Source: a virus
Lineage: Duplodnaviria > Heunggongvirae > Uroviricota > Caudoviricetes
IMG/VR virus record: IMGVR_UViG_3300037962_000518
Span: 71,960 to 135,959 of that record
Length of the DNA stretch: 64,000 nucleotides
Direction: 5' to 3' (one strand)
Shown piece after piece: positions 1,642 through 45,304 of the stretch. Below the pieces are notes generated by a model. That model made no database searches. It was not told the DNA's origin and saw only the letters and a program-made list of their open reading frames with translations. The position numbers were made by a program, and so were the translations under genes. Positions within the stretch are counted from its first letter, which is position 1. Each line of letters starts with the position of its first letter.

Positions 1642-2628
1642 CTATTTGTAATAGTTTACTAAACGTTTCATCATATTATCAATATTACTATCCTCTGGTA
1701 AGTCAGATAAATCTAACAACATCATCACTTCTTCAAAAAGTTCGTCAATTGTATCGATAACCTCTTTCTCTGACTCTACCTCACCAAGTTTAACTTTCTT
1801 GATATAGTCGGAATTTACTAATGGAAACGTGATATTCTTTGTTTCAATAAGTTCTTTTAATTGTAGTAAGACGCGTAGAGCATGACTTAGACTCTTACTA
1901 TCCATACCTTTCTTATCGCCATCTTTGGAACGTTTACCATATCTATCCAACTCTTTTTTCAAAGCTTCTTTTAATAATTTACATTCCCAAGACAGGATAT
2001 ATTTCTTACCACACACTTCCAGATATTGTTGTTCATGATCTGTAACCTGAGTTACAAACTTAACATACTTAAAACTATTACGTTTAATAATTTCTGGTAA
2101 AGTTGTATCCGACAGCTTGACATTATCTTCTACATAATTTACTTCTTCTAATAGAGTGCTCATTTCTTGATAACGTTGAATCTTATTAGAATACGTATGT
2201 GTGTGTTTTTTGATATACCCAATTAATCCCTTCATGTTTTTAGAAAGTAAATCTTTCCTGTGGGATCTAATATCTTCCCAAATACTCGTCCAGTTCATAA
2301 TCATTTCATCAGGAGTCCACAACATATCAATACAATTGGTGTCACAAGATTTACAACTCTTTAAGAAACTAGGTAGAGATTTAATCTCGATTTCAATATT
2401 AAGATTAACATCTTTAATGTTCTTAGTCTTGATGCTCTCACCTAATAATAAATCTTCGAAAGATGGTAAGTACACAGCTTTGACATCTACATCACTACCT
2501 TCTCGCTCTAATCCATACAACATTGATCCGTGTAAAGATACAACAACAAGTCTATCCTTGTAAGGTTGTAATTTATCTGCAACCCAATCTATTTGGTCGT
2601 TATTTAAAAATTTTGTCCAAGTTCTCAT
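1642..2628 (-). CDS. Pol-beta superfamily nucleotidyltransferase (RlaP/NrdC.11-like)
   Basis: HGSMLYG...SDVDVKAVY (GS..DxD) and K...HALRVLLQ C-terminal helix; start ATG 2628 overlaps upstream stop. Confidence 0.8.
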   Translation of the reverse strand: MRTWTKFLNNDQIDWVADKLQPYKDRLVVVSLHGSMLYGLEREGSDVDVKAVYLPSFEDLLLGESIKTKNIKDVNLNIEIEIKSLPSFLKSCKSCDTNCIDMLWTPDEMIMNWTSIWEDIRSHRKDLLSKNMKGLIGYIKKHTHTYSNKIQRYQEMSTLLEEVNYVEDNVKLSDTTLPEIIKRNSFKYVKFVTQVTDHEQQYLEVCGKKYILSWECKLLKEALKKELDRYGKRSKDGDKKGMDSKSLSHALRVLLQLKELIETKNITFPLVNSDYIKKVKLGEVESEKEVIDTIDELFEEVMMLLDLSDLPEDSNIDNMMKRLVNYYK

Positions 2629-3251
2629 TTCATCTTCTCCTTCCAAAGTTTCTGCACTTTTCTAATTTCATTGATTCTTGCAGCACGTATTTCTAATCCA
2701 ATAACCTTACCACATTTACCATTTTCAATAAGTTTACTTGAAATTTCCTTAGTGTCAAGACTAATTACAGCATCTAGACAATCTTCTAAGTATTCTCTTT
2801 GGTGGTAAGGTTTATTCAAGAAATATTCTCTGGTGAATTTATGATTTTCATGTTCAGGTAAACCTCGTCCTTTACTATCTGCTTCACAGGCTTTTAGAAT
2901 TTTTATAAAACGCTCAGGATTTCGGTAGGCGCCTGTTTCTTCAAAAAGCTTTTGTATTGACTTAGGCCTCATCCAAGAGTTAGAACTCCTACCCATACAA
3001 CCGTGTATTTTAGTATGGTATTCGCAGACTAATAAAGCTAAATCTCTATACCTATTAGGAACTTTCCATTTATTACAAAAAGACAGGATATAAGGTAAAC
3101 CTTCTTTCTCATGATTATATGCATTCTGGTAGTTATCCCAACAGTATTTTTTACCAAAATCGTGACATAATACTGAAAAATTGATCTCGGCATCACCCCA
3201 TTCTTTTGCAGCATATTCTATAGCAAGCATTGTATGTTTAAATACTGACAT
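2625..3251 (-). CDS. cca: CCA-adding enzyme C-terminal half (HD phosphohydrolase + tail)
   Basis: KHTMLA..CHDFGK..KVPNRYRDLALLVCEYH..ACEADSKGR is collinear with the C-terminal half of E. coli Cca; own RBS GAGGA. Confidence 0.85.
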   Translation of the reverse strand: MSVFKHTMLAIEYAAKEWGDAEINFSVLCHDFGKKYCWDNYQNAYNHEKEGLPYILSFCNKWKVPNRYRDLALLVCEYHTKIHGCMGRSSNSWMRPKSIQKLFEETGAYRNPERFIKILKACEADSKGRGLPEHENHKFTREYFLNKPYHQREYLEDCLDAVISLDTKEISSKLIENGKCGKVIGLEIRAARINEIRKVQKLWKEKMK

Positions 3252-3872
3252 AGACCCTTCCTCTTATATTTTCCAATATTTTTCTATAAAGCCTAGAATC
3301 TAATTGGTCTAGACCTTTCCTCATCTCAGATAAAAGATTAACTTTGTGTTCATACCATTTATGATGCGCCTCTAAAGCTGTGTCATAGTAACCTAGATGA
3401 ATATTATTGCCGTTCCCATTATTAACTCTTGACCTATACCTAGTACAAGTTTTCATTTCTACTTTTGTTGTACCGCACAACATACCGTATGGCTTGTTAA
3501 GCAGGTCTTTCACAAAATTATTTACTTTACTAGTAACAAAACAGCAGGTGGCTGGTGAATAAAGAGTGCCGTCTCCTAAAATATCCTTATCTAGTTGCAG
3601 GACTTCTTCGTCTACATACCACCTCTGCTCAGTCATCCATTTCCTGAAGTTAGAAAATAGTAACCACTCTTTGCAAACAGAGGTTCTTAAATACTGGGGT
3701 TGCTTTTCCAAACATTTTTATTGTAACATCTATATAACATCTTACTCCACTTTGAATAGTAAGGACAAACCCACAGGACATTATTCTTTCCAGTAACCTT
3801 ACACTTATATCTCTTATCTATAGGATAATCTGCGTCATTAATACCTATACCACATACCTTCCTTTCACTCAT
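3238..3872 (-). pseudogene. free-standing HNH-type homing endonuclease, frameshifted
   Basis: ORFs 3687-3872 and 3238-3711 join into CPYYSKW..RCY..SVCKEWLLFSNF..LDKDIL..YSPATC; frame break at the 5-nt A run (plus T3715-3719). Confidence 0.8.
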
Positions 3873-4567
3873 AGATCCTCCACTTCTGGATGGTGTTCTT
3901 GCTTCTGTGGAACGCCGTACATCATACCCACTTCCTTAAATATGTTAAATTTAAATAAAAACTCGAAGAATCTTTCAGGATGATTCTCTTTCAAAGCTTT
4001 TTCCATTTCTAACCAAACTCTTTCTGGTGTAAGGTATTCCAACTCTCCTGAAATATATACTCTTTTACAGGCTTCTAGTAAAGATGGTGTTACTTGGAAA
4101 TCCTTATATCTTGCCAGAAATCTTGCTACTCTTAAGATTCTGAGCGGGTCTTCACTAAATGAGTTGGTAGTTTCACGCAGGTATTTGTTTGTTAAATCCA
4201 ATACTCCGCCAAAAGGATCAACTAAACCTCCAACCACTTCAAACTTACCATTGTCATCGACAACAACTTCTTGTGCCATTGCATTGATTGTTAAATCTCT
4301 ACGAGATAAATCTTCCTCAAGAGTTACACCTTCCCATTCACACTCAAACCCGTAGTAGCCTCTCCCAATTTTACGTTCTTTTCTAGCAAGAGCATACTCA
4401 TCACCAGACACAGAATGGATAAACACAGGGAAATCCTTACCAACCATTTTGAAACCTTTATCTAACATATCTTGTGGTGAACAACCAACTACCACAAAAT
4501 CATTATCCTTTGGTTCTAGTCCTAATAGCTTGTCACGTATACTTCCACCTACCAGATATGTTTTCAT
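3869..4567 (-). CDS. cca: CCA-adding enzyme N-terminal half (nucleotidyltransferase)
   Basis: YLVGGSIRD..KDNDFVV, EDLSRRDLTINAMA, EDPLRILRVARF, PERVWLE; ends GVPQKQEHHPE. Confidence 0.9.
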   Translation of the reverse strand: MKTYLVGGSIRDKLLGLEPKDNDFVVVGCSPQDMLDKGFKMVGKDFPVFIHSVSGDEYALARKERKIGRGYYGFECEWEGVTLEEDLSRRDLTINAMAQEVVVDDNGKFEVVGGLVDPFGGVLDLTNKYLRETTNSFSEDPLRILRVARFLARYKDFQVTPSLLEACKRVYISGELEYLTPERVWLEMEKALKENHPERFFEFLFKFNIFKEVGMMYGVPQKQEHHPEVEDL

Positions 4568-5061
4568 AAAAACAACACTCCCAACCCAATAAATAACAAC
4601 ACCCACATTACACCAAGAAATCTACACTCTAAATCCATCAATTTCAAAGCCACCTGTCTATTTGACCAAGCATCTTCTTTCAACATTTCCTTTTCAAAAT
4701 AATGTCTCCATTTCTCAGATTCCATTTCTGAAAGTTTCTTACCATATTTAGAATGTAACTCTTGAGAAACACTCTCCTCTTTCTCTCTGAGAAGAATAGA
4801 AACATAATCTTCTAAAGCTGGATCAAATACGATAAAAGTTTCTTCAACACACGGTTCAACGTCAAAGTATTCAGAAGCAGTCGCTTTACAGAAACGTCTT
4901 ACAGGAGAAACTTTTGTCGTAGTAATATAGTTATCTTCAAAAAGTAAGTTTTCATTTCTATCAACAAATTTTGAAAGGTTCATTGTTTGAAATTCCATTC
5001 TGTCTACACAAGGAATAATCTCATCTTCAACAACTGTTTTAAATACTTTAACTGGTTTCAT
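4564..5061 (-). CDS. hypothetical protein, C-terminal TM helix
   Basis: 165 aa ORF with RBS; hydrophobic C-terminus. Confidence 0.6.
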   Translation of the reverse strand: MKPVKVFKTVVEDEIIPCVDRMEFQTMNLSKFVDRNENLLFEDNYITTTKVSPVRRFCKATASEYFDVEPCVEETFIVFDPALEDYVSILLREKEESVSQELHSKYGKKLSEMESEKWRHYFEKEMLKEDAWSNRQVALKLMDLECRFLGVMWVLLFIGLGVLFL

Positions 5062-6172: not shown

Positions 6173-6357
6173 TACTCAATGTCCTCTCTATAATCGACAG
6201 TTGTTAAGTCTTCTGGATTCCAATAAATGAAGACACAGCCGTTTCTACATTTAACCTTACCAGACTCCTCAAAAGAATCCACACAATATAGTCTTCCGTA
6301 AGGATCGATCACCACAGAATACTCTGTTAAATAGTCTCCGTTCTTAGATTTAATCAT
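6172..6357 (-). CDS. hypothetical protein
   Basis: RBS GGAG before ATG 6357. Confidence 0.5.
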   Translation of the reverse strand: MIKSKNGDYLTEYSVVIDPYGRLYCVDSFEESGKVKCRNGCVFIYWNPEDLTTVDYREDIE

Positions 6358-6799
6358 ATTTCTTCTCCCAGTATTCAATTAATTTTGCTAATTGCTTTGT
6401 ATATTTACTAACTCTCTTGCTATTCTTATCCATAACAGAATGATTCAGATTGCTCATAGTATCACATATCTTAACAAAGTGTGCTAATCTATTTTCACAA
6501 CATCTTTTTAAATATTCTGACCTAGTCTCTTTATCTTGTTTACTGATAGAAACAATAGCTTCATGAATGTGTTCTGGTACATTAGGAATATTATTGTAGT
6601 ATTCAGGCTGATCCTCTAAACAATCATGTAGATAAGCTACATCTAACGCATCTCTCCAAACATAACCATCCCATTTGTAATCATGCGTTAATTTGCAAAC
6701 TATATCAGCTACATCCTCTAAGTGTAGGATGTAATCATCTTCTCCATACTTTTGGCCTTCGTGAGCTTCATCAGCGTGCCACCATGCGTTAAATTCCAT
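6350..6799 (-). CDS. RelA/SpoT-type HD hydrolase (small alarmone hydrolase-like)
   Basis: AHEGQKYG..YILHLEDVA..YLHDCLED..VKICDTMSNL. Confidence 0.8.
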   Translation of the reverse strand: MEFNAWWHADEAHEGQKYGEDDYILHLEDVADIVCKLTHDYKWDGYVWRDALDVAYLHDCLEDQPEYYNNIPNVPEHIHEAIVSISKQDKETRSEYLKRCCENRLAHFVKICDTMSNLNHSVMDKNSKRVSKYTKQLAKLIEYWEKKYD

Positions 6800-7052: not shown

Positions 7053-8531
7053 TTAATCTGTGTTGTAACGTCCATGAAACTCTCCATCACTTCCTACACT
7101 ACACTCTCCTCCGAAACACAGGTTAAAGTCATCAGATAACAATAATACTTCGTAAGCTGTAATATCTTCACCACCCTCTAAGATATACCCTGAAAACTTA
7201 CTATTTGCATAATAGGGTTCTTTTCCTGAAATTCTTACATACTTCTTAAGGTGCTGCTCTCTTAAACGTTTAATCGTAGCAATCTCTCCTTGTATATAAC
7301 CACTGTTTTCACTAAAAGCATATCCTTTAGGACTTGTACTGCTTGATTCCATACTCTTGACTTTAGGATGATAATCTACTTCCTCACCATCAATTAATCG
7401 CTGCATATCTTCAGACCTACAAACTACTTCTAGTAGATTACATTTATCAACTTTAACCTTACCTTCTGAATAGTCTTTAATACCACATTCATCAAAAGAT
7501 ACTTTGTAAATTACCTTTCCTCTATAATTCCAAGAATACATATTTTCAAATCCTGATTTTGTGTAACACGTAGTATACCCATAAGATTTATATTCGTTAC
7601 CAATATTCTCCCCTTCTGGTGCAATAACATAGTAGGTATCGGAAAGAATACCTTGGTTAGAAACATCTACTTTAGAAAGAACACCATCTTCAATTAAACT
7701 TCTTAAACTGTCTTCACAGTCAACAGCATTAATATCAACGAAGTATTCTTCCCCATTGAGTGTCACAACTTCTAAAGGTTCATTATTAACAATGAAATCA
7801 ATACAATCCACAGGGTATAAGTATTCAGGAGCAGTGACATTTTCATCAGATGGAGATAGTAGAATGTCAATGCCTTTCTGAATAGAAAATTCTTCATCTT
7901 TACAAGCTTTAAAATCTGCTAATGTAAAACCGTATGAGTTTCCGATAGCCTCTTTAAAGCTTTCCCACGAATCAATATTAAGTTGTGATATAGCTAATCC
8001 AAGTTTGAGGATTTCATTACGTGAAGGTTTATAACCACGAGACTTATATTTATCCAAACGTAACATTGTTAAGATAGGGAACTTTGTTTTAACATTTACA
8101 CTCAAATAACGTTGTGAATTGTGCATCCAAAAGTTTTCATCATAAATCAAATCTTCTTCCAGACAACGATAAGCAGCCATGTTGATAGTGAAATCATAAT
8201 GTTCAAAGATATCCGAAGCTTTCTCGTAAAAGTCATAGTAAATGAATTGAATCTTAACACCACTCTTCATTACGTAAGTAATACTCTTGTCAGAAATAAA
8301 TCCAACGTGAGGATCATCTTCTTTCATATAACGGATAGCTTCAACACAACTTTTCTTATTTGCAAAATATACATCATAATCTTCAATCTGATCTGCAGTG
8401 CCATTTGCAATACATGTCAATGCACCTCCAGCAATATAGCATTGGTGTTTATTGTTTTTCATGTAATCTAAAAAATGTTTTACATCTATATTTGATGTAA
8501 GTTTATTGATTAAATATTCGTCTTGGTTCAT
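7053..8531 (-). CDS. class-II-NTase-like (polyA polymerase/CCA head fold) protein with unknown C-terminal domain
   Basis: YIAGGALT..IEDYDVYF, YDFTINMAAY, MLRLDKYKSRGY. Confidence 0.65.
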   Translation of the reverse strand: MNQDEYLINKLTSNIDVKHFLDYMKNNKHQCYIAGGALTCIANGTADQIEDYDVYFANKKSCVEAIRYMKEDDPHVGFISDKSITYVMKSGVKIQFIYYDFYEKASDIFEHYDFTINMAAYRCLEEDLIYDENFWMHNSQRYLSVNVKTKFPILTMLRLDKYKSRGYKPSRNEILKLGLAISQLNIDSWESFKEAIGNSYGFTLADFKACKDEEFSIQKGIDILLSPSDENVTAPEYLYPVDCIDFIVNNEPLEVVTLNGEEYFVDINAVDCEDSLRSLIEDGVLSKVDVSNQGILSDTYYVIAPEGENIGNEYKSYGYTTCYTKSGFENMYSWNYRGKVIYKVSFDECGIKDYSEGKVKVDKCNLLEVVCRSEDMQRLIDGEEVDYHPKVKSMESSSTSPKGYAFSENSGYIQGEIATIKRLREQHLKKYVRISGKEPYYANSKFSGYILEGGEDITAYEVLLLSDDFNLCFGGECSVGSDGEFHGRYNTD

Positions 8532-14213: not shown

Positions 14214-16767
14214 ATGGCAACATATAGTCCATTGGCTACCGCTATTATTTCATTAGCTACAGCTTCTTTTGAACGTCAGGGTTTTGGAATTCCACTTTTC
14301 ATTACTCCTCATCGTTTTACTGAAGACCGTGTGCTAATCGTAACAGCAGATAGCTACCAAACAGACCTTCCTGTAGGAAGCGATGCATACGCTGCAGCAG
14401 CAACTTCATTTGCCCAACCTAACGGTTTATCACAACTATACATTGGTCGTGTAGAAGCAGATGCAGAGATTACTGTTCCTGTAGCACCAACTGAAAATGA
14501 AACCTATTCTTTCACTATTGAAGTGAATGACGGTGATAGTTTAGAAGTAACCCACACTGCTGGTGCAACACCTACACAAGAGTCTGTACTAGGTGCATTG
14601 GAAACTGCAATTAATGGTGATACTGATGTAGCAGCTCATGTAACAGCAACACTATCTGGTACAGGTGCTTCTGCTAAACTTACTATTACAACAGTTTCAA
14701 CAGGCGACTTCTTCTTACTAAGCGACTTAGTTAAACTTGAAGATACTTACGTAGCTACAGAAACAGCAACAGAAGCTTTCACAGCAATTTCTGCAGAGAA
14801 TAACAACTTCTATGGTGTTGGTACTTCTGATAAGACTGAAGCTTGGCTATTGGAGCTTGCGGCTGTAGTAAATGCAGTTGAAAAACAATTCTGGACAACA
14901 GTATCGGATACAGGTGCGTTATCGGCATTAGCTGATCCAGCTACAGATACACTTGGTAAACTTCAAGCAGGTAATTATTTACGTGTTGTATCAGGTTATC
15001 ACCAAGATGCAGAAACAACTTTCCCAGAAATGGGTGCATTAGCATTTAACCTTCCATTCCCTGCTGGCAGTATTGTCTGGGGTAATGCAAAGACTAGTGG
15101 TATTGGTGCTTCACGAGATGCTGATGGTAAGAAACTTGGTGTTACGGAAAAGCAAGCTCTACTAGACCGTAATGCATTCTTCTGGGATGAGCAAGGCGGA
15201 GCTCAATTCTTAAATTCAGATGTTAAGACATCTAGCGGTGAACGTCCTGAAAATGTTCGCGGTAAAGATAATATGGTTGTAGATATTCAAGCTGCTGTAA
15301 GTGAGCTTCTTCTTAACCAAGTAGGTAGAAAATTACCGTTAAAGTTAGCGGCCTAGTATAGAAATATATTAGTGAAAATCTCGTGAATTGCTGGAAAGCC
15401 CTTAGAGCTTTAAGAACTACAACGTGACTTTGAAATAAAGGTGAGCGTGAATGTTTGAAAATCTTGAAGATTGGGTAATCAGCAGCCAAGCCCCTAATAG
15501 GGGAAGGTTCAACGACTATTCCGATAGGAAGTAGGAATCAAGTGATTCCGAAGTGCGAGAGGTGGTAGTTATTTAATAACCCACTAAGATATAGTCTGGT
15601 CTTATATGAAAGTATAAGCTGTCCTTATTAAGTTTCATAATTTAAGGGTTTAAGGTGTGCCTACTCACACCACCCTATTTTACCTAGTAGGAGGTAAATA
15701 TGAAACATAAAAGATTTAATGAAGCATTACCTTACACTTACTTACTTGTACGTAAGTCTGATAACTTAAAATATCACGGTGTACGATATGCAAATACCAA
15801 GTTGGGTTTAAGCCCTGAAGAAGATTTCGGAAAGAAGTACTTCACCTCTGGTAAATTAAGAAAAGAGTTTAAGAAGCATCCGGAAAGATTTGAATACACT
15901 GTTAAGTGGACTTTTGATACAGTAGATGAAGCACTTTCACATGAGTATCAGGTGAATAAAAGAATCTTTCTGAAAGACGACTGGGCTAACATGTGCTACG
16001 GTAAGAATTTTGGAGAACACCCAGACATAGGCTCTCTTATCAGCGCATCCAGAACTAAAGATGTAGTGGAACAAGGTGTTAAAGCTCTTAAAGATTTTCT
16101 TTACAATACAGAGGAAGGTACTCAGATAAGGTACGAGATTTCTGAAAGAAAGAAAGCTTTCTGGAAAGATAAAACACATTCAGAAAAACTAGAAATCTTA
16201 AAAGCTGCACACGAAACTCTAACTCAAGAACATTTTGACAAATTACATGAATGGAGAAGAGAGGTAGTAGATGATAAAGGTACTACCCGAAACCATTTAA
16301 TATGTCGAAAGAGTGCGGAAACTAGAGCTAAGAATGGAACTAACTCTATCATAGGTAAGAAAAGAAATGAAATTTTCAATGAAAAGTTGAAAGCTATGAC
16401 AGATGAAGAGTTTGCCGAATGGTGTGAAGGGAGAACTCCCAGAGCTATTAATGGTGCAACTACAAGAAGAAACAAATAACTTGGTAAGGACAGGAGAAGA
16501 TTAACGAACTTCTCTAACACAAACGATAATAATTTAGGAATTGCACAAATTGAAAGTGTTGTAGACAGTGTTTTACAAACATACGTTCAACGCAATTTCA
16601 TTGAAAATAGTTATGTTATTACATCACCAGATGCACGTTTAATTGCGGGTGGTATTAAAGCTACTCAGAAACTAGATAACATGACATTCGTTGCACAATT
16701 AACTGGTGCAATCACGATGGTTGATGCTATCCGTGGTATTCTTCAACTTGACGAGGTATTACAATAA
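14214..16767 (+). CDS. tail sheath protein, spliced (exons 14214-15339 + 16526-16767; 455 aa)
   Basis: splicing restores KLPY-NNLGIAQIESVV (sheath C-terminal motif); GFGIPLF N-terminus. Confidence 0.9.
15340..16525 (+). ncRNA. group I intron (IA-like) in tail sheath
   Basis: P AAUUGCUGGAAA, Q AAUCAGCAGCC, R GUUCAACGACUA, S AAGAUAUAGUCU; P1 CCGU/GCGG with U-G; terminal G 16525. Confidence 0.93.
15700..16479 (+). mobile_element. intron-encoded Seg-like GIY-YIG homing endonuclease
   Basis: YTYLL..KYHGVR..YFTSG..EAL..E; looped out by stem CUGUCCUUA(15619-27)/UAAGGACAG(16485-93). Confidence 0.75.
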
Positions 16768-18016: not shown

Positions 18017-21000
18017 ATGGGAAAATTTAATGATCTCTTAATTGAAATAGGGATTGATACCAAGCCAGCAATGGATAAGATTAATAAGTTGGATAAGGCA
18101 TTTGATGACTTAGGTAAATCTTTCCAAGCAGTAACTAGGAAAAAGCCTCCCAAAGATCAATTCAACCTTGGTGCAGAACGCGCTAAGATGCAAAGATTTA
18201 TAAGAGAATTAAAATCTCTTGGTGCAGAAACTGAAACATATCAGAAGCAATTAAAAGGATTAAAAAATGCTTCTCAATTTAAGAGTATGCAACAAGATTT
18301 AGCTAAGTATAAAAAGGATTTTCTAGCTTTTAAAGACGCTGAGAGTAAAGATAATCTCAAAACTGTCAAGGATAGACAAAAGGCTGAAACAAGGGCGAAC
18401 TCTGAGATTGAAAGAGCAAGGATAAAGCAAGCTCAAGATACAAATAAGAAGTTGACAGAAGAACATTCTAAAAAGTCTCCTGAACTTCAATCTATGAAGG
18501 AATTTTACCAACAACAAGAGCGTGAAGCAAGGAAAGGATCTCCTAAAGAAAAGAAACGTTCTCAAGCAGATATTAATAGGGAAAACTCCTTATTAAAACA
18601 GAAGAAGCTTTTAAAAGAGATTAAAGCTTTAAAATTAAAACCTGATTATGATAAGCTTGATACGATTGCTAAACAGAATACAGCTTTAGAAAGACAGATC
18701 AAGAAGTATAAAGCCATTGAAGAGTATTCTGAAAAAGCTGCTAGAAATATTTATAGATCAGAACAGTTTAGGAGCATGTCTCCCTCTGATCAAAGACAAG
18801 TTTCTAGACGTGTATCTCAAGCTCAATCAGACTTTAAAGTTACAGGTGATAAGGACGTATTCAGAACACTTAATAGGGATGTGAAATCTTTCCAACGTAG
18901 CTTGATAGGATTACAAACTGTACAAAATGGATTGTCCGATAGTACAAGGAATATGGTAAGAGCTTATGCTAGTTTATTTGCTCTTATAGAGGGTACTACT
19001 GCCATTAAGAATGTTGGTATGGACTTTCAAGGTATGGAAGCATCAATGTTAGCCTCTGCAGGTACTAGTGAGAAAGCAAGGAAGGATTTATCTTACATAA
19101 ATGATTTAGCTGATGAAATGGGTCTGAACCTTAAGAATACAACAGATGCTTATGTAAAATTGCAGTTTGCAACAAAAGGGAAGATTGATGATAAGCAAGT
19201 TAAGAATCTTTTCACAGGCTTAGCAGAATTTGGTACAGCTTTAAAAGTTGCACCAGAAAGTATGAAACTTGCACAACGTGCTTTTATGAGAAGGCACTTT
19301 CACTAGTAATAGTGTTATAAAACTGGGTTAATTGCGGGAAACCCCTTAGAGCTTTACAGTACTAACTATTGATGGTAACATGCAATAGGGCTAACAGTAA
19401 TGTGTTAGATATAGTAAAAATTTGTAAAGATTGGGCAATCCGCATCCACATTGGTGAGCTACTTTATTCTTAGAACCACTAATAGGATCAACGACTATCC
19501 GAAAGGAGTAAGCCGTAAGTTTATGACGGTTGAAAATCCAGCCCCTACTTAACTAGGGTGAAGATATAGTCTCTACTTCTATGGAAACATAGAGATGCAG
19601 GTAATGCTGCTGACAAGGATTTACGTACCTTGTTGAAGAAACAGATTTCACAAATGGCAAGCAAAAATCAAATAATGGCTGAGGAACTCAAGTCGCAACT
19701 TGCAGAACATCTCCCCGGCGCTATTCAAATATTCTCTAAGGCATTGAATGTAAACGAGAAAGAGTTGTTCAAGATGATGGAACAGGGACAACTAATAGCT
19801 TCTGAGGTGTTACCAAAAGTAGGTGACGAGTTTAGAAAAGCAGCAAGAGATGGCGGAGCTTATAAAAAGGCACTTGAAGGGTTACGTGTTACAGAAGGTC
19901 AATTCTCTACAGAGGTGCAAAGATCAGCAGATACAATATTTAAAAGTGGTTTCGAAAAAGGTCTGTCACAATTATATAAAGAACTATCTACTCAACTAAA
20001 AGGAACAACTTCATCACAAAAAGATCTCGGTAATATTTACAACAAATTCTTCAAACTTATAACTTTGGGGATAAAAGTTGTAACACCATTACTAGAGTCA
20101 CTGGTACAAATTGTATCTTTTTCAGTAGATGGGTTCTATGAGACAGCAAAAGGAATTGGTACAGCAACTGATAATCTTAAAACAATGTCACCAGCGTTAT
20201 ATGATGCTGCTAAGGCTGTCGGAGTTTTAGCTTTTGCTTTTAATACCTTATTAGGTAAAGTATTGGTTGTTTTTGGTGCATTACAGGAGATTGTTTCACT
20301 CTTCAATGATGACCTAGTAGGTAAGCTTGAGCAGCAAATGGGTAAACAAATAAACCTTAAAACCATGCGTCAAGAAGTAGTAGTTGAAACGAAAGAAGGA
20401 ATTTTCTCAGGAGAGGATTACGCATTTAATGTTAATCTAAAAGTTGATAAAGATTTGAAATCCTTCGAGGACATCAACAAATTTTTAGAAGATAACAATC
20501 TTACAGCAACAGGTTTTGCAGAAAGCATGGGAATGAAAGTTGCAGACCTAAAAACTTCTGTTGAAAATGGTTTATCTGACTCTATTAAAACAGCTCTCAA
20601 GACATACACCCTTGATGAAAACATGAAGGAACAAGCTGAAAAACTAGGTGGGAGCTTCGAAGAACTTATTACTAGTGTTGAAGATGGTGCTCTATCTTTA
20701 AAAGAGTTCTCATCTGTTGTCAGAGGCATTTCTAAAGGTATAGCGGACTCGGATGGTGTTATTGCTGCTGTAAGTGGTCTATCTTTAGAATTAATACTAG
20801 CTGTAGCGGCACTAGTTTCATTCAAGAAAGGTCTTGGAAGCATTGCAGAGAAAATCTTTGGTATCAAATCCCCTGATAAAGCTGTTAAAAATACATCTAA
20901 GTCAGGAGGTTATATGAAAGAGCTTTTAGCTTTCTTAACTAACCCAACAACCATAGCATCGGGAGCACTAGCAGCCCCAGTGCTGTATTCCGCTGCTAAG

Positions 21001-30117: not shown

Positions 30118-30696
30118 CTATGGGAATCGCGCGATAAGGGCATCTCTTATCCTAAAGTCATCTTGTTGTTTAGCCAACTTGTGAGCATAAGACTTCTTCA
30201 CCCTGTAATACTCTTTGTAGGCTTCACAAGGAGAAGAGAAACTACCCAAGTAACCTCTAGAATCCTTATTAAAAGGATTCTTACATTGAGCTATGTACTT
30301 ACCTCTTAATTCAGTAACGCCTAAAGGTAAATCCCCTCTATCATTACCCCTGTCAGTAAGGAAGTTATTTAAGTTTTGGGTTATAAAACAACAATTCTCA
30401 GGAGAGTATAACTTTCCATTACCTAATATATCCTTATCCAATACCTTCCCTTCCCAATCTTGGTTTTCCATCCATTGTTTGAAGTTAGAAAATGTTAACC
30501 ATTCTTCGCAGACATAACAACCTTTGTAAGTAGGTTGTTTAGCTTGGTATACAGAAGAATAACACCTTCTAAGCATACTGTACCACCTGTCATAGAATGG
30601 ACAAATCCAAACTCTTTTCTTTTTACCGTCAACAAGTTCATTTATGGTTTTCTGATATTTCAAATCAGAAACTCCTACACTAAATATTGTTTTCAT
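30118..30696 (-). mobile_element. free-standing HNH-type homing endonuclease
   Basis: CPFYDRWYSMLRRCY..VCEEWLTFSNF..LDKDIL..YSPENC..LPLGV. Confidence 0.8.
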
Positions 30697-41744: not shown

Positions 41745-44559
41745 TTAATGTGTCTGTAAGTAATTACCTTTATTACCTAAATCTGACACCTTGTAACCAC
41801 CATCTAAATTAAAGGCGAACAAAACACCTCCTTCAATATTAGGGAATTTATCTGGATTATCCTTATACCACTCGTAACATTTATTGCTTGCATACTCATA
41901 TGCTTCACACATCAATTTACCAGCAGCTTCTGCATCTTCGTCAGAAGCTTCTACGAGAAACTCATCCAAAAACTTATCAGGGCGTAAACCTGCTACTATT
42001 TCTAGTAGAATCGGATCATATCATAACCTACGTAAATACGTTTAGGTTTCCCGCTTTTCGAATACACTTGTACCCTACGAACAACTACGTTCTGACCTCT
42101 GCACACCTACTAATAGTAAATGCTCAGGATTACCTTCTACTAACTAAGTAACACCTGTTATCCCAACAGTAATTATAAGTCTAGCTAAGGTTTCCCTGAA
42201 TTAACGGGATTCTTCGAGTCACTTTTCAGCAACAAGCCACAATGTTTTTATGGTAGTCTAATACTTTAAAGGCATCTAAACCTCTTTTAACCACTTCCTT
42301 ATTAAAATAATTTACAGCAACTTTTTGACAAGCAGCTTCAGCCCCTTGAGCTAAAAAATTACAAATTTTATGGGTTGAGTCACACCAAGCCCAGTAACCA
42401 AAAGGTAGGGGTAAGTAAAAACCTTTCCCCCTTTTAAAAGAGTCTTTATATTTTTCACCCCAATCTATTATTCCCTGTAAACCCATTCTGGATAAGAACA
42501 TGTTCTTTTTCGCATTACCTTCGGATTCAGGTATACCTAACATACCTGCTAATTTTTTACCAGAACATCCGAAACATACTCCGAAAGAGGCACCCTTACT
42601 CTTTTTCCTACGTAAACTTATACTATGTATAAGCTCAGGGTCTTGTGTCTTTACAGCTCTCTCAAATTCCTCAGTACTAACCATACCAAAATTCCTAGCA
42701 GAGTGGCAATGGGCACTCATACCAACGTAGAATTCATTACCATCTTCATCCTTGTCTAATTCTAAACCTGATGCAACAGCTTCATAATATTCAGCATTCC
42801 TTGCATAGAATGAGAGTATTGCGAGCTGAGCACTAGCCATGTCCGCACCTACTAGCCTTCGGCCTTCTGGAGCTATCAGGATCTTACGTATTTCCTCCCC
42901 GTACATACTCCCCTCACCTGCGGCATTCACCCAGACCCTGTGTGACCCACGACCACTACTAGTTGAAAAATTGTTTATACCACAAGGTAGTCTACCATCT
43001 TCCCTTATGTAAGCCATCAAGCCCTTATCTTCATCAGTAGGGTTAGATATGAAACGTCTCCTATGCACCGTAGTATTATACTCACCAACACGTTTAGCGT
43101 TTTCATCTGTAAGTTGATCATAATCCTTTTCAGAGACTTTAGGGCTACTTACTAATAAATCTCCTTTCTTAACTTTGTAATGTAACTGATTTTCTTTTGA
43201 AGCTTTAGGAGGGTAACTTATAACAGTATCTTCCTCTGCTTTTAAGAAGCCTCCTTCTGAATCCTTTTTAAAATTCCATTCAGAAACTTCTTTAAGACCT
43301 TTCTTTATTAAGTAACCTTTAACAACTTCATGCTGTGTCAGTTTACTTGCAACAAATTTAATCTTAGTATGAGCGCCTACAATAATATCAGTGTCTTCTG
43401 GTTCAACTTCAAAATAATCACAAGTATTTTTATTTAGTAGTTTTGTTTCTTCAATGTCCTTGGTTACTTCCCACTCTTTAACAAAAGCTGCTAAGTCTTT
43501 CTGCTTCGCATTATCCCCTTCTGGATGTTGACTTTTAATCCATTTAATTAAGTCATTCTTCTTAACGAACTTAGGGCTAAATCCGTGAGAAATATTAAAT
43601 GCAGAATACTGATTTACTTTCTTCGTAGTATGAAAATTCATGGTAGGTTTATAGTAAGGTTTAACAGGAACTTCTACCATTTCTCCATCACGTTTAACCA
43701 TTTCAATTTGGTCTTTCATACCAGAAGTATCATATCCAAACAACGCAGCCATCTCAACACGACTAATCTTTCCTCCGGACACTTTTATTGTAGGAGGTAA
43801 TATAGGTTCTATAAAATCTTGTATTTCTTTAGCTTTACTGTCCCACTCAGTAATACACTTAATCATATGATCCTTATCTGCTAGCACACCTACCTGCTCT
43901 TGCTCATGACAATTTTTAGTATACTCAACCTCCATTTTGTAAGCCTCAGTCATATCAATACCTAACCTATCTTTCAACATGTCTCTTTCTTTTTTGAGAT
44001 AATTATGTGCAAACTTTTGGGTCTTAGTGTCGATAATACAACGATGTAGCATAAAAGCATTCATAACACTGAAATCTTCTATATCAGGTTTCTTATTACC
44101 TTCCATTAAAGAGTAGTTAAGTAAACCGTGTGGAGATTTAGATCCTTTTCGTTGAGGTCTGTCAAACCATTGTATTTTACTTTGTATAAAAGTGTCTATC
44201 CAAACATCATCATCTATCTTACATTTAGGCCATATTTTCTCAACCAAAGGTTTATCATATGTGAAGCAGTTGTGTACAGATAATTTACTTCCGTTCTTAC
44301 CAGCTAAATACCAAAACCTGACACCATCAAGTAGAGTACCTGTTCTAGGTGGTATAGTGTAAGTTTTCCCTTGATCAAACACTTCTTTATTATCATATTC
44401 TGGGTAATCGTGGAAGATAAAAACTTCATCAGTCTCATCATCTCTGCTAACCAAACACCACACATCTTTATCTGATTTAACAACATCAAGATATCCTCTT
44501 GCCTCTATGTCTGCGTGTAATATACGATTTGTGTACTTACTTTTATCAATATTAAACAT
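41745..44559 (-). CDS. family A DNA polymerase, spliced (exons 44559-42250 + 41966-41745; 843 aa)
   Basis: 3'-5' exo ADIEARG; SGRGSH; motif A DMASAQL; motif B RKKSKGASFG; motif C YH-DE restored by splicing. Confidence 0.92.
41967..42249 (-). ncRNA. ORF-less group I intron in DNA polymerase motif C
   Basis: P AAUUCAGGGAAA, Q AAUCCUGAGC, P7 GGUCA/UGAUC, P3 UCCCGU/GCGGGA, P9 CUACUA-GAAA-UAGUAG; P1 CCAU/GUGG; P10 GAUG/CAUU. Confidence 0.9.
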
Positions 44560-45304
44560 AATCTTTCACCTCATAAGAAATTAAAGCTTTGAAAAGATTT
44601 TCTGGAATACTACAATCTTTATAGTATTTTTCAGCTAAACATTTTATCCTATCTTCCTTCCAATTTTTGTATACCTTGAAAGCTTCTTCTGGTGTAGAAA
44701 AACCTCCTAGACATTGTTTGTCTGAAGTATAACTATAGTATTTCCCACTATATTCCACTACGCTTGTGGGTAAATTCCTTTTCTTAAGGGTTTTATTATA
44801 TTTTATTAAATTGTTTAAAGTTTTTGGGACAAATACACATGTTTCAGGTGAATACATTTTATTATTATACACTAAAAGGTCTTTGTCTAATTCGAAACCT
44901 TCTTTATAATTTTCTTCAAACCAAACTTTAAAATTATCTAGATAACACCAATCAGGTGTTACACTACAATCTTTATACGAAGGGTATTTTTTATGAAATG
45001 TTTCACTATAGCAACGTTCTAGCATACCGCTCCATAAGTTGTAAAGTTTGGTAGTAACACCATTAACCGTGGTTACATTATCCCCTACTACCCCTTTACC
45101 AAAAACTGTAGGTGCATATTTATCTCTGCATCTGCCATTTTTAATATGATCTGCTCTAAACCAAGATAGTGTCCCTGTATTAATAAATTTCACTAATACA
45201 TTCTTATAATCTTTATACTCTACTACTTCTACTTCACCGAATTGATTAGTAGGGAATCTTTTACCTACACAATCTTTCATTTTTTCTTTTAACCAATCTG
45301 GCAT
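44552..45304 (-). mobile_element. free-standing HNH-type homing endonuclease
   Basis: YNLWSGMLERCY..YKDCSV..W..NFK.WF..LDKD..YSPETC. Confidence 0.8.

Follow-up and report, generated by a model that had tools for sequence, protein, structure and literature searches.

A phage gene for the CCA-adding enzyme in two parts, probably divided by a free-standing homing-endonuclease gene

When an endonuclease gene comes to lie inside the gene for a conserved enzyme, is the enzyme still made, and if so, as one chain or as two? This question is raised by cca, the gene for the CCA-adding enzyme, in a marine phage of the class Caudoviricetes that is known from a 142,363-bp IMG/VR virus record (IMGVR_UViG_3300037962_000518) rated complete by CheckV. 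We analyzed a stretch of 64,000 nucleotides from this record (positions 71,960 to 135,959), which we refer to as the window and whose own numbering is used below. Between 4567 and 2625 the window holds four consecutive minus-strand open reading frames (ORFs) of 232, 61, 157 and 208 amino acids. A sequence-only reading of the locus had proposed that the first and the last are the two parts of a Cca protein, split by the insertion of a non-splicing homing endonuclease. Our results agree with this proposal in the main: the outer ORFs are the halves of one cca gene, the insertion between them is likely to be a free-standing endonuclease gene that involves no splicing, and the two products probably assemble into a working enzyme.

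The two halves of cca and the junctions between them

The first ORF, at 4567..3869 (-), is the N-half of cca and encodes the head (nucleotidyltransferase) and neck domains in 232 amino acids. The last, at 3251..2625 (-) with its ATG at 3251-3249, is the C-half and encodes the HD phosphohydrolase and body-tail region in 208 amino acids. The N-half ends with QEHHPEVEDL followed by its stop codon and the C-half starts with MSVFKHTMLA, both as originally quoted. The N-half matches Pfam PolyA_pol (PF01743, 2e-16) and PolyA_pol_RNAbd (PF12627, 2e-7), and it covers positions 1-227 of the 409 in NCBIfam PRK10885, the E. coli multifunctional CCA addition/repair protein (1.6e-89), as well as positions 3-225 of the 392 in phrog_2244. 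The C-half takes up both profiles where the N-half leaves them, at positions 229-405 of PRK10885 (2e-31) and 227-389 of phrog_2244. Because these coordinates abut, the two ORFs are the parts of one cca gene that is interrupted at one point of the profile. The equivalog cutoff of PRK10885, at 451 bits, is reached by neither the N-half (300.5) nor the C-half (109.2), and the sum of the two is also below it. The window's own C-half has no Pfam match at 0.01; PF01966 is precomputed on its close homologues.

The break falls directly after an invariant HHPE, encoded at 3895-3884 (-), and five residues ahead of the first metal-binding histidine of the HD domain. The sequence-only reading had placed the split just before this histidine, and the adjacent profile positions agree with that placement. 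So does the comparison with intact relatives that had been suggested at the time: intact alleles were found, and at the break point they read HHPE, five residues, and then HT or, among intact phage homologues generally, an H followed by T, C or Q. In an alignment of split and intact relatives, the transferase motifs GGxxRD, DxD, RRD and EDxxR are invariant. The invariant residues of the N-half are G7, G8, R11, D12, D21 and D23 in the head and R89, R90, D91, D140 and R143 in the neck, and those of the HD domain in the C-half are H6, H30-D31, H79, H83 and D125. Compared with E. coli Cca (PRK10885), the domain order is the same (class II head-neck plus HD) and the catalytic motifs are kept; the difference is that here the enzyme is encoded as two polypeptides.

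The halves lie in different frames with a gap of 617 nucleotides between them. Endonuclease coding sequence fills this gap and overlaps both halves, leaving no non-coding room. At the upstream junction, the stop of the N-half and the start of the endonuclease gene overlap in an ATGA (3872-3869 (-)), and a GGAGG that can be read directly within the final N-half codons (3881-3877 (-)) stands five bases ahead of the endonuclease ATG. At the downstream junction, the endonuclease sequence overlaps the start of the C-half by 14 nucleotides, and GAGGAAGGG (3263-3255 (-)), within the final endonuclease codons, stands three nucleotides ahead of the C-half ATG. Both ribosome-binding sites had been called in the sequence-only reading, and both are where it put them. 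Each of the nine split loci that we found (see below) has a purine-rich Shine-Dalgarno sequence ahead of its C-half ATG. The N-half tails past HHPE are variable and 4-14 residues long; they share an ED that coincides with the Shine-Dalgarno sequence of the endonuclease gene. The C-half has no added head.

Rfam searches, at the gathering cutoff and at E ≤ 10, returned no intron at this locus (window 2400-4800) or at the homologous locus of Vibrio phage 11895-B1, and the matches at both were chance-level ones to small nucleolar RNAs (snoRNAs) or small RNAs (sRNAs). As positive controls, the search recovered two group I introns in other parts of the window, at 15330-15618 (+) and 19273-19594 (+), which match the full-length RF00028 model with 89.9 and 87.6 bits. 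An intein was rejected, as the halves are in different frames, stop codons intervene and there is no space for intein halves. Trans-splicing by a split intein was rejected as well, as the N-half continues for only four residues past HHPE and the C-half begins at a native residue. The earlier statement that the locus has neither a group I core nor an intein therefore holds, on the negative Rfam search, the frames, the stops and the lack of room. The claim of a non-splicing split is also upheld by the relatives, in that nine loci share the site and one of them, L013, is still split without an endonuclease gene. Taken together, we consider it likely that the insertion is a free-standing, non-splicing homing-endonuclease gene that splits cca in two.

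The endonuclease insert and its family

The sequence-only reading had described the gap, of about 620 nucleotides, as filled by one HNH gene overlapping both halves. The gap is wholly taken up by sequence homologous to phrog_953, whose PHROG name is "HNH endonuclease", and the overlap with both halves stands. Two parts of the description did not stand: the sequence consists of two frameshifted ORFs rather than one gene, and the PHROG name is the sole source of the HNH label. The 61-amino-acid ORF (3872..3687 (-)) matches phrog_953 positions 194-246 (1.2e-15) and aligns to the GIND...CPxYxxWxxMLxRCY block of the homologues before the frameshift truncates it. The 157-amino-acid ORF, which begins from a TTG (3711..3238 (-)), matches positions 242-384 (1.6e-43) in a different frame and contains the VCxEW...LDKD...YSPxxC...N core and a probable C-terminal AP2-like DNA-binding domain. 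The two parts are in one frame in every homologue, be it one of the six at this site in other phages or one of the five paralogues in this genome, and the same-site homologues are single ORFs of 197-328 amino acids. The endonuclease alignment runs gap-free over the junction if one base is absent from a run of five A's (A5) at 3719-3715 (-).

Four other independent assemblies, from different TARA or Logan runs (L031, L032, L034 and L035), carry the same frameshift sequence, and one of the four has a single-nucleotide polymorphism elsewhere. We therefore take the frameshift to be real and reject an assembly error at the A5 run. Programmed frameshifting and transcriptional slippage were rejected as improbable, given that T-AAA-AAT is not a canonical X-XXY-YYZ heptamer and that five A's are too few for slippage to be efficient. 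Because of these two features, and because all homologues are in one frame, we read the shift at the A5 run as a mutation. The endonuclease gene in this phage is most likely defunct, and the cassette here is probably no longer mobile on its own.

Pfam HNH models matched neither the ORFs of the window (0.01) nor the six homologues (E ≤ 1). In the alignment, the invariant residues of the family are a D-K-D and a downstream N, with no invariant histidine, and the catalytic chemistry of the phrog_953 family may differ from that of canonical HNH enzymes. The evidence for an AP2 domain comes from the homologues and the alignment and not from the window copy by itself. In the model of a homologue (pLDDT 81), the C-terminal part resembles an AP2 DNA-binding domain: Foldseek matches it to ERF1 (1gcc_A, prob 0.99, TMt 0.59), and comparison of this part with 2gcc_A (VIA) gave a Z of 5.6 and a root-mean-square deviation (rmsd) of 2.4 over 57 amino acids. 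A profile search matched the AP2 domain of 7wq5 (WRI1) at E 0.005, and PF00847 gave a score under its cutoff for the endonuclease of one split relative, L014 (E 0.004). When the full endonuclease model was compared with the PDB by Foldseek, nothing was returned at E ≤ 0.001; the AP2 part alone was recognized. Folded alone (pLDDT 83), the conserved core contains a beta-beta-alpha element where the invariant residues lie. In the PDB, the core comes closest to the HNH enzyme PacI, a weak match (VIA; Z 4.4, rmsd 5.4 over 85 amino acids), and a fold assignment of the core based on PacI was dropped because a Z of 4.4 is too weak. On the strength of these alignments and models, we call the insert product an AP2-domain, phrog_953-type putative homing endonuclease.

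This endonuclease family is expanded in the phage. Its genome has five more phrog_953/AP2-type paralogues, each in a single frame of 199-264 amino acids and with 31-42% identity to the copy resident in cca. Two are in the window, at 30157-30543 (-) and 44624-44992 (-), and the others are at G000:C1:18889-19293, 42052-42474 and 136481-136873 of the genome.

Split and intact alleles and the spread of the cassette

Homologous cca genes are found in hundreds of phages (tblastn, phage records). A megablast search of phage records found no DNA near-identical to the locus. The cultured Vibrio phage 11895-B1 is split at the same site, between HHPE and the five residues before HT. Its halves, 56% and 61% identical to those of the window, are 847 nucleotides apart, its C-half starts with MSVLKHT, and between the halves is a 280-amino-acid endonuclease homologue in one frame. 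This endonuclease gene is intact, and its product has an additional zinc-finger-like domain at the N-terminus. A search for proteins of C-half length yielded seven more stand-alone C-halves, which start with MS[VC][FL]KHT and are 57-86% identical to that of the window. The nine split loci are thus those of the window, of 11895-B1 and of seven metagenome contigs (L012-L018).

The seven contigs differ in what is visible around the split. In L014, L015, L016 and L018, the order is N-half, endonuclease gene and C-half, and L017, where the locus lies at the contig end, has the endonuclease gene and the C-half. L012 has a 328-amino-acid endonuclease gene and a C-half (L012:3147-4738), and its DNA similarity to the intact allele of phage eugene 12A10 starts only about 30 nucleotides into the C-half. 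In L013, the N-half is followed directly by the C-half, in a different frame and with a TAATG overlap, and there is no endonuclease gene. The N-half tail of L013, IEDYLEKL, and the DNA ahead of its C-half ATG match the 5' end of a cassette of the 11895-B1 type. Because this footprint of the cassette survives, we regard L013 as a deletion derivative, in which the endonuclease has been lost yet the gene is still split. Intact cca genes were found at eight IMG/VR loci and in phages eugene 12A10, Barba8S, 1.084.O, Slickus01, D181, 496E54-1 and R16F, and further scans of IMG/VR for split alleles found intact alleles alone.

A comparison of the window (3238-3872) with L017 (L017:2-496) gave an observation on the endonucleases themselves. 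The C-halves of the two loci are 86% identical, whereas their endonucleases are about 38% identical and end differently (RGRVYVSI and KEDEVCQY, respectively). This suggests that different members of the endonuclease family have turned over at one site.

The history of the split was examined in trees built separately for the N-part and the C-part without the columns adjoining the break. In both trees, the split alleles are scattered among intact ones, and L012 and L014 group with the intact allele of eugene 12A10 with 99/99 support. Forcing the split alleles together costs 115 log-likelihood units for the C-part and 108 for the N-part (approximately unbiased (AU) test, p = 2.1e-6 each). L014 and eugene 12A10 share 90-95% identity over most of the N-half and of the C-half. 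Around the insertion, in about 60-80 codons on its 5' side and about 40 on its 3' side, they share 30-55%, and in these low-identity stretches L014 resembles other split alleles. We read these mosaic stretches as co-conversion tracts, the classic footprint of homing. Since the split alleles are polyphyletic and co-conversion tracts flank the insertion, the comparison indicates that the cassette has spread among divergent cca alleles by homing. Through co-conversion it would therefore carry the tail and stop of the N-half, the endonuclease gene, the Shine-Dalgarno sequence, the ATG and the first codons of the C-half into each new allele.

We propose the following mechanism. A free-standing cassette of the phrog_953 type would insert in a cca gene of the E. 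coli type, between the HHPE codons and the five residues before the first HD histidine. The cassette would supply a short tail and stop to the N-half, with the Shine-Dalgarno sequence of the endonuclease gene contained in that tail, and it would also supply the Shine-Dalgarno sequence and ATG of the C-half. One operon mRNA could then be translated into two Cca polypeptides, a head and neck chain of 232 amino acids and an HD/body chain of 208 amino acids, with splicing of neither RNA nor protein. A homing cassette would drag flanking cca sequence along by co-conversion, and in this phage a later frameshift of one base would have broken the endonuclease gene while the cca halves stayed under selection.

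Function of the two halves and the meaning of the split

Within the supported clade that consists entirely of split alleles (the window, L017 and L018), the C-half had a ratio of nonsynonymous to synonymous substitution rates (dN/dS) of 0.08-0.125 and the N-half one of 0.23, with dS >1. Wherever they are visible, the halves have their full length, and they persist where the endonuclease gene has been broken by a frameshift (here) or removed by a deletion (L013). We conclude that both cca halves appear to remain under purifying selection.

A complex prediction for the two halves, one of the checks proposed with the sequence-only reading, supports binding. The pair scored 0.86 compared with 0.50 for the best control, the runs agreed on at least 69% of contacts, and the partner pLDDT was at least 87. 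The mark used for these predictions is reached by 58 of 80 solved complexes and by 2 of 110 mismatched pairs. About 110 contacts at high confidence make up the predicted interface, in which N-half residues 181-230, HHPE among them, meet C-half residues 1-65 and 128-139. This pass may in part reflect likeness to known single-chain class II CCA enzymes; a profile search with the C-half found no PDB chain that matches it by sequence. We judge it reasonably probable that the halves reassemble via the native neck/HD interface into a working two-chain enzyme for CCA addition and repair.

Several observations weigh against a non-splicing split that left such a two-chain enzyme. The tails at the break are short (4-14 amino acids) and variable, whereas the tails of NrdA from Aeromonas phage Aeh1, a split enzyme discussed below, are essential for assembly. 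The dS values are saturated, and if the lineages were invaded separately and recently, the low dN/dS partly predates the split. The endonucleases at the shared site have just 29-50% identity to each other: either they are old or different family members have turned over. In L012, no N-half was found within 4 kb upstream even at E 10, and the C-half may be kept alone. Finally, RefSeq NC_020843.1 annotates the cca gene of 11895-B1 as a two-piece joined coding sequence (CDS) with a nested "HNH endonuclease", which implies splicing. The GenBank record for the same phage (HQ634157.1, VPHG_00144-00145) has two separate CDS, and the joined CDS in RefSeq is probably a mis-annotated gene in pieces. The RefSeq stretch examined (NC_020843.1 95078-97259) has two more joined CDS, which encode a terminase large subunit and a hypothetical protein.

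We considered whether the halves might instead be separate enzymes that form no complex. The N-half would then be a minimal nucleotidyltransferase and the C-half a free HD 2',3'-cyclic phosphodiesterase/phosphatase for the healing of tRNA 3' ends, and the split would uncouple activities that are combined in E. coli Cca. The break does fall at a domain boundary, but the model sets HHPE, directly before the break, against the first residues of the C-half, in an interface that is large and of high confidence. Yakunin et al. (2004) reportedly mapped the HD-domain activities of the E. coli enzyme to H255/D256, apart from the transferase site, which would favor independent action; class II CCA enzymes, however, need the body/tail region to hold tRNA. 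The C-half is under greater constraint than the N-half, and L012, with an endonuclease gene and C-half but no N-half nearby, hints that the halves can act separately and may represent a phage that keeps the HD half alone. In seven of the eight loci with a visible upstream region, on the other hand, both halves are side by side and translationally coupled. We consider separate action of the halves rather unlikely, and reassembly into a two-chain enzyme is the reading that we prefer.

A less favorable case can be made that the split killed cca and that the ORFs are recent, still-open remnants of a dispensable gene in decay. A phage with only one tRNA gene perhaps does not need its own Cca, the endonuclease gene is already decaying, and L012 seems to have lost its N-half. 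Set against this, no visible half is truncated at any locus, no catalytic residue varies, the signals for translation are conserved, dN/dS is 0.08-0.23 over dS >1 in the all-split clade, and the halves persist where the endonuclease gene is frameshifted or deleted; decay of the split cca is thus very unlikely. The idea of a self-splicing intron with an endonuclease ORF inside it, and of a single-chain Cca made from spliced mRNA, draws on the joined RefSeq annotation and on the two true group I introns of this phage, but it is hardly credible given the negative Rfam searches at both loci, a gap so full of endonuclease coding sequence that a core of about 200 nucleotides has no room, a separate N-half stop and C-half Shine-Dalgarno sequence and ATG in every split allele, the two ORFs in different frames that remain in L013 without an insert, and the two separate CDS of the original GenBank entry.

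Downstream of the C-half is a gene for an RlaP-like nucleotidyltransferase (phrog_388, PF10127) at 1642..2628 (-). Its synteny with cca extends to most relatives, and it is part of the same tightly coupled operon. The start ATG of the N-half overlaps the stop of the upstream ORF as ATGA, and the C-half stop overlaps the start of the next gene in the same manner. The block formed by the upstream ORF, the N-half, the endonuclease ORFs, the C-half and the RlaP-like gene is translationally coupled through ATGA or short overlaps. Further upstream in the same minus-strand block are a small SpoT-like HD protein (6350-6799 (-)) and a 492-amino-acid protein (7053-8531 (-)) whose start, GG...DxD, resembles that of a nucleotidyltransferase; along with cca and the RlaP-like enzyme, they give the impression of an island for RNA repair or alarmones. 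A single tRNA gene (Gly, anticodon TCC; G000:C1:61011-61085) is present in the entire phage genome, and host tRNAs, rather than a tRNA set of the phage, are therefore the probable target of its Cca.

To our knowledge, few enzymes are known to survive fragmentation by a non-splicing homing endonuclease, and the split NrdA of phage Aeh1 is the sole case studied biochemically. The "genes in pieces" arrangement of Aeh1 nrdA and mobE is reportedly also treated by Friedrich et al. (2007). In Aeh1, the genes nrdA-a, mobE and nrdA-b yield two NrdA polypeptides whose conserved tails mediate assembly (Crona et al. 2011, PMC3045599), and the precedent is as the sequence-only reading had stated it. The cca locus is like Aeh1 nrdA in that a free-standing endonuclease gene lies inside the gene for a conserved enzyme, without splicing and with translation signals of its own, and in that related phages have intact alleles. 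It differs in the host gene and in the endonuclease, which is of the phrog_953/AP2 type and not MobE. It also differs in the element-derived tail of the N-half, which is short (4 amino acids here), variable and without a conserved interaction domain, and in that the split Cca is known here from sequence and a model. A further difference is that the cca site offers a natural series of intact, frameshifted and deleted endonuclease genes.

Two other systems bear comparison. In Pectobacterium phage CB7, the gene for nicotinamide phosphoribosyltransferase (NAMPT) is interrupted by an HNH element, and reverse transcription PCR (RT-PCR) showed that it is not spliced (PMC7344957). As at cca, an endonuclease element divides a metabolic gene of a phage into two ORFs, but the gene, the phage group and the endonuclease all differ. 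Fractured genes with split inteins and a free-standing endonuclease (Dassa et al. 2009, PMC2677866) likewise have an enzyme gene in two ORFs with an endonuclease gene between them; unlike these, cca has no intein halves. By analogy, the mechanism at cca appears to match the genes in pieces described for Aeh1 nrdA/mobE (PMC3045599) and proposed for CB7 NAMPT (PMC7344957). The sequence-only reading had also stated that no split Cca has been described. Our literature searches found no paper describing one and none discussing the cca locus of 11895-B1, so the statement stands for the papers searched, but the same split was already present in GenBank and RefSeq for 11895-B1.

The locus adds cca to the genes in pieces, with an unusually complete series at one site: intact alleles, a split with an intact endonuclease gene (11895-B1), a split with a frameshifted one (this phage) and a split from which it has been deleted (L013). 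This series opens two questions to direct experiment: does a class II CCA enzyme still function when it is divided into two chains where neck and HD domain meet, and does the repair activity of the HD domain depend on the transferase? The analysis also corrects a likely mis-annotation of the 11895-B1 cca gene in RefSeq and documents homing with co-conversion in marine phages, as far as the allele comparisons indicate. A more tentative idea, which we put forward with considerable doubt, is that the cassette, more than a tolerated parasite, has evolved as a benign splitter. Its ends, with the stop, the Shine-Dalgarno sequences and the ATG, would keep both pieces expressed and so allow it to colonize the HHPE site in many alleles, and the two-gene form would persist after the endonuclease dies, as here, or is deleted, as in L013, the separation of transferase and HD domain being neutral or useful and the change in subunits a lasting one. 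If this is true, the subunit make-up of a tRNA-repair enzyme would have been changed for good by a selfish element, and the possible use to the phage would be independent dosage of the two chains, or an HD-only state such as that of L012.

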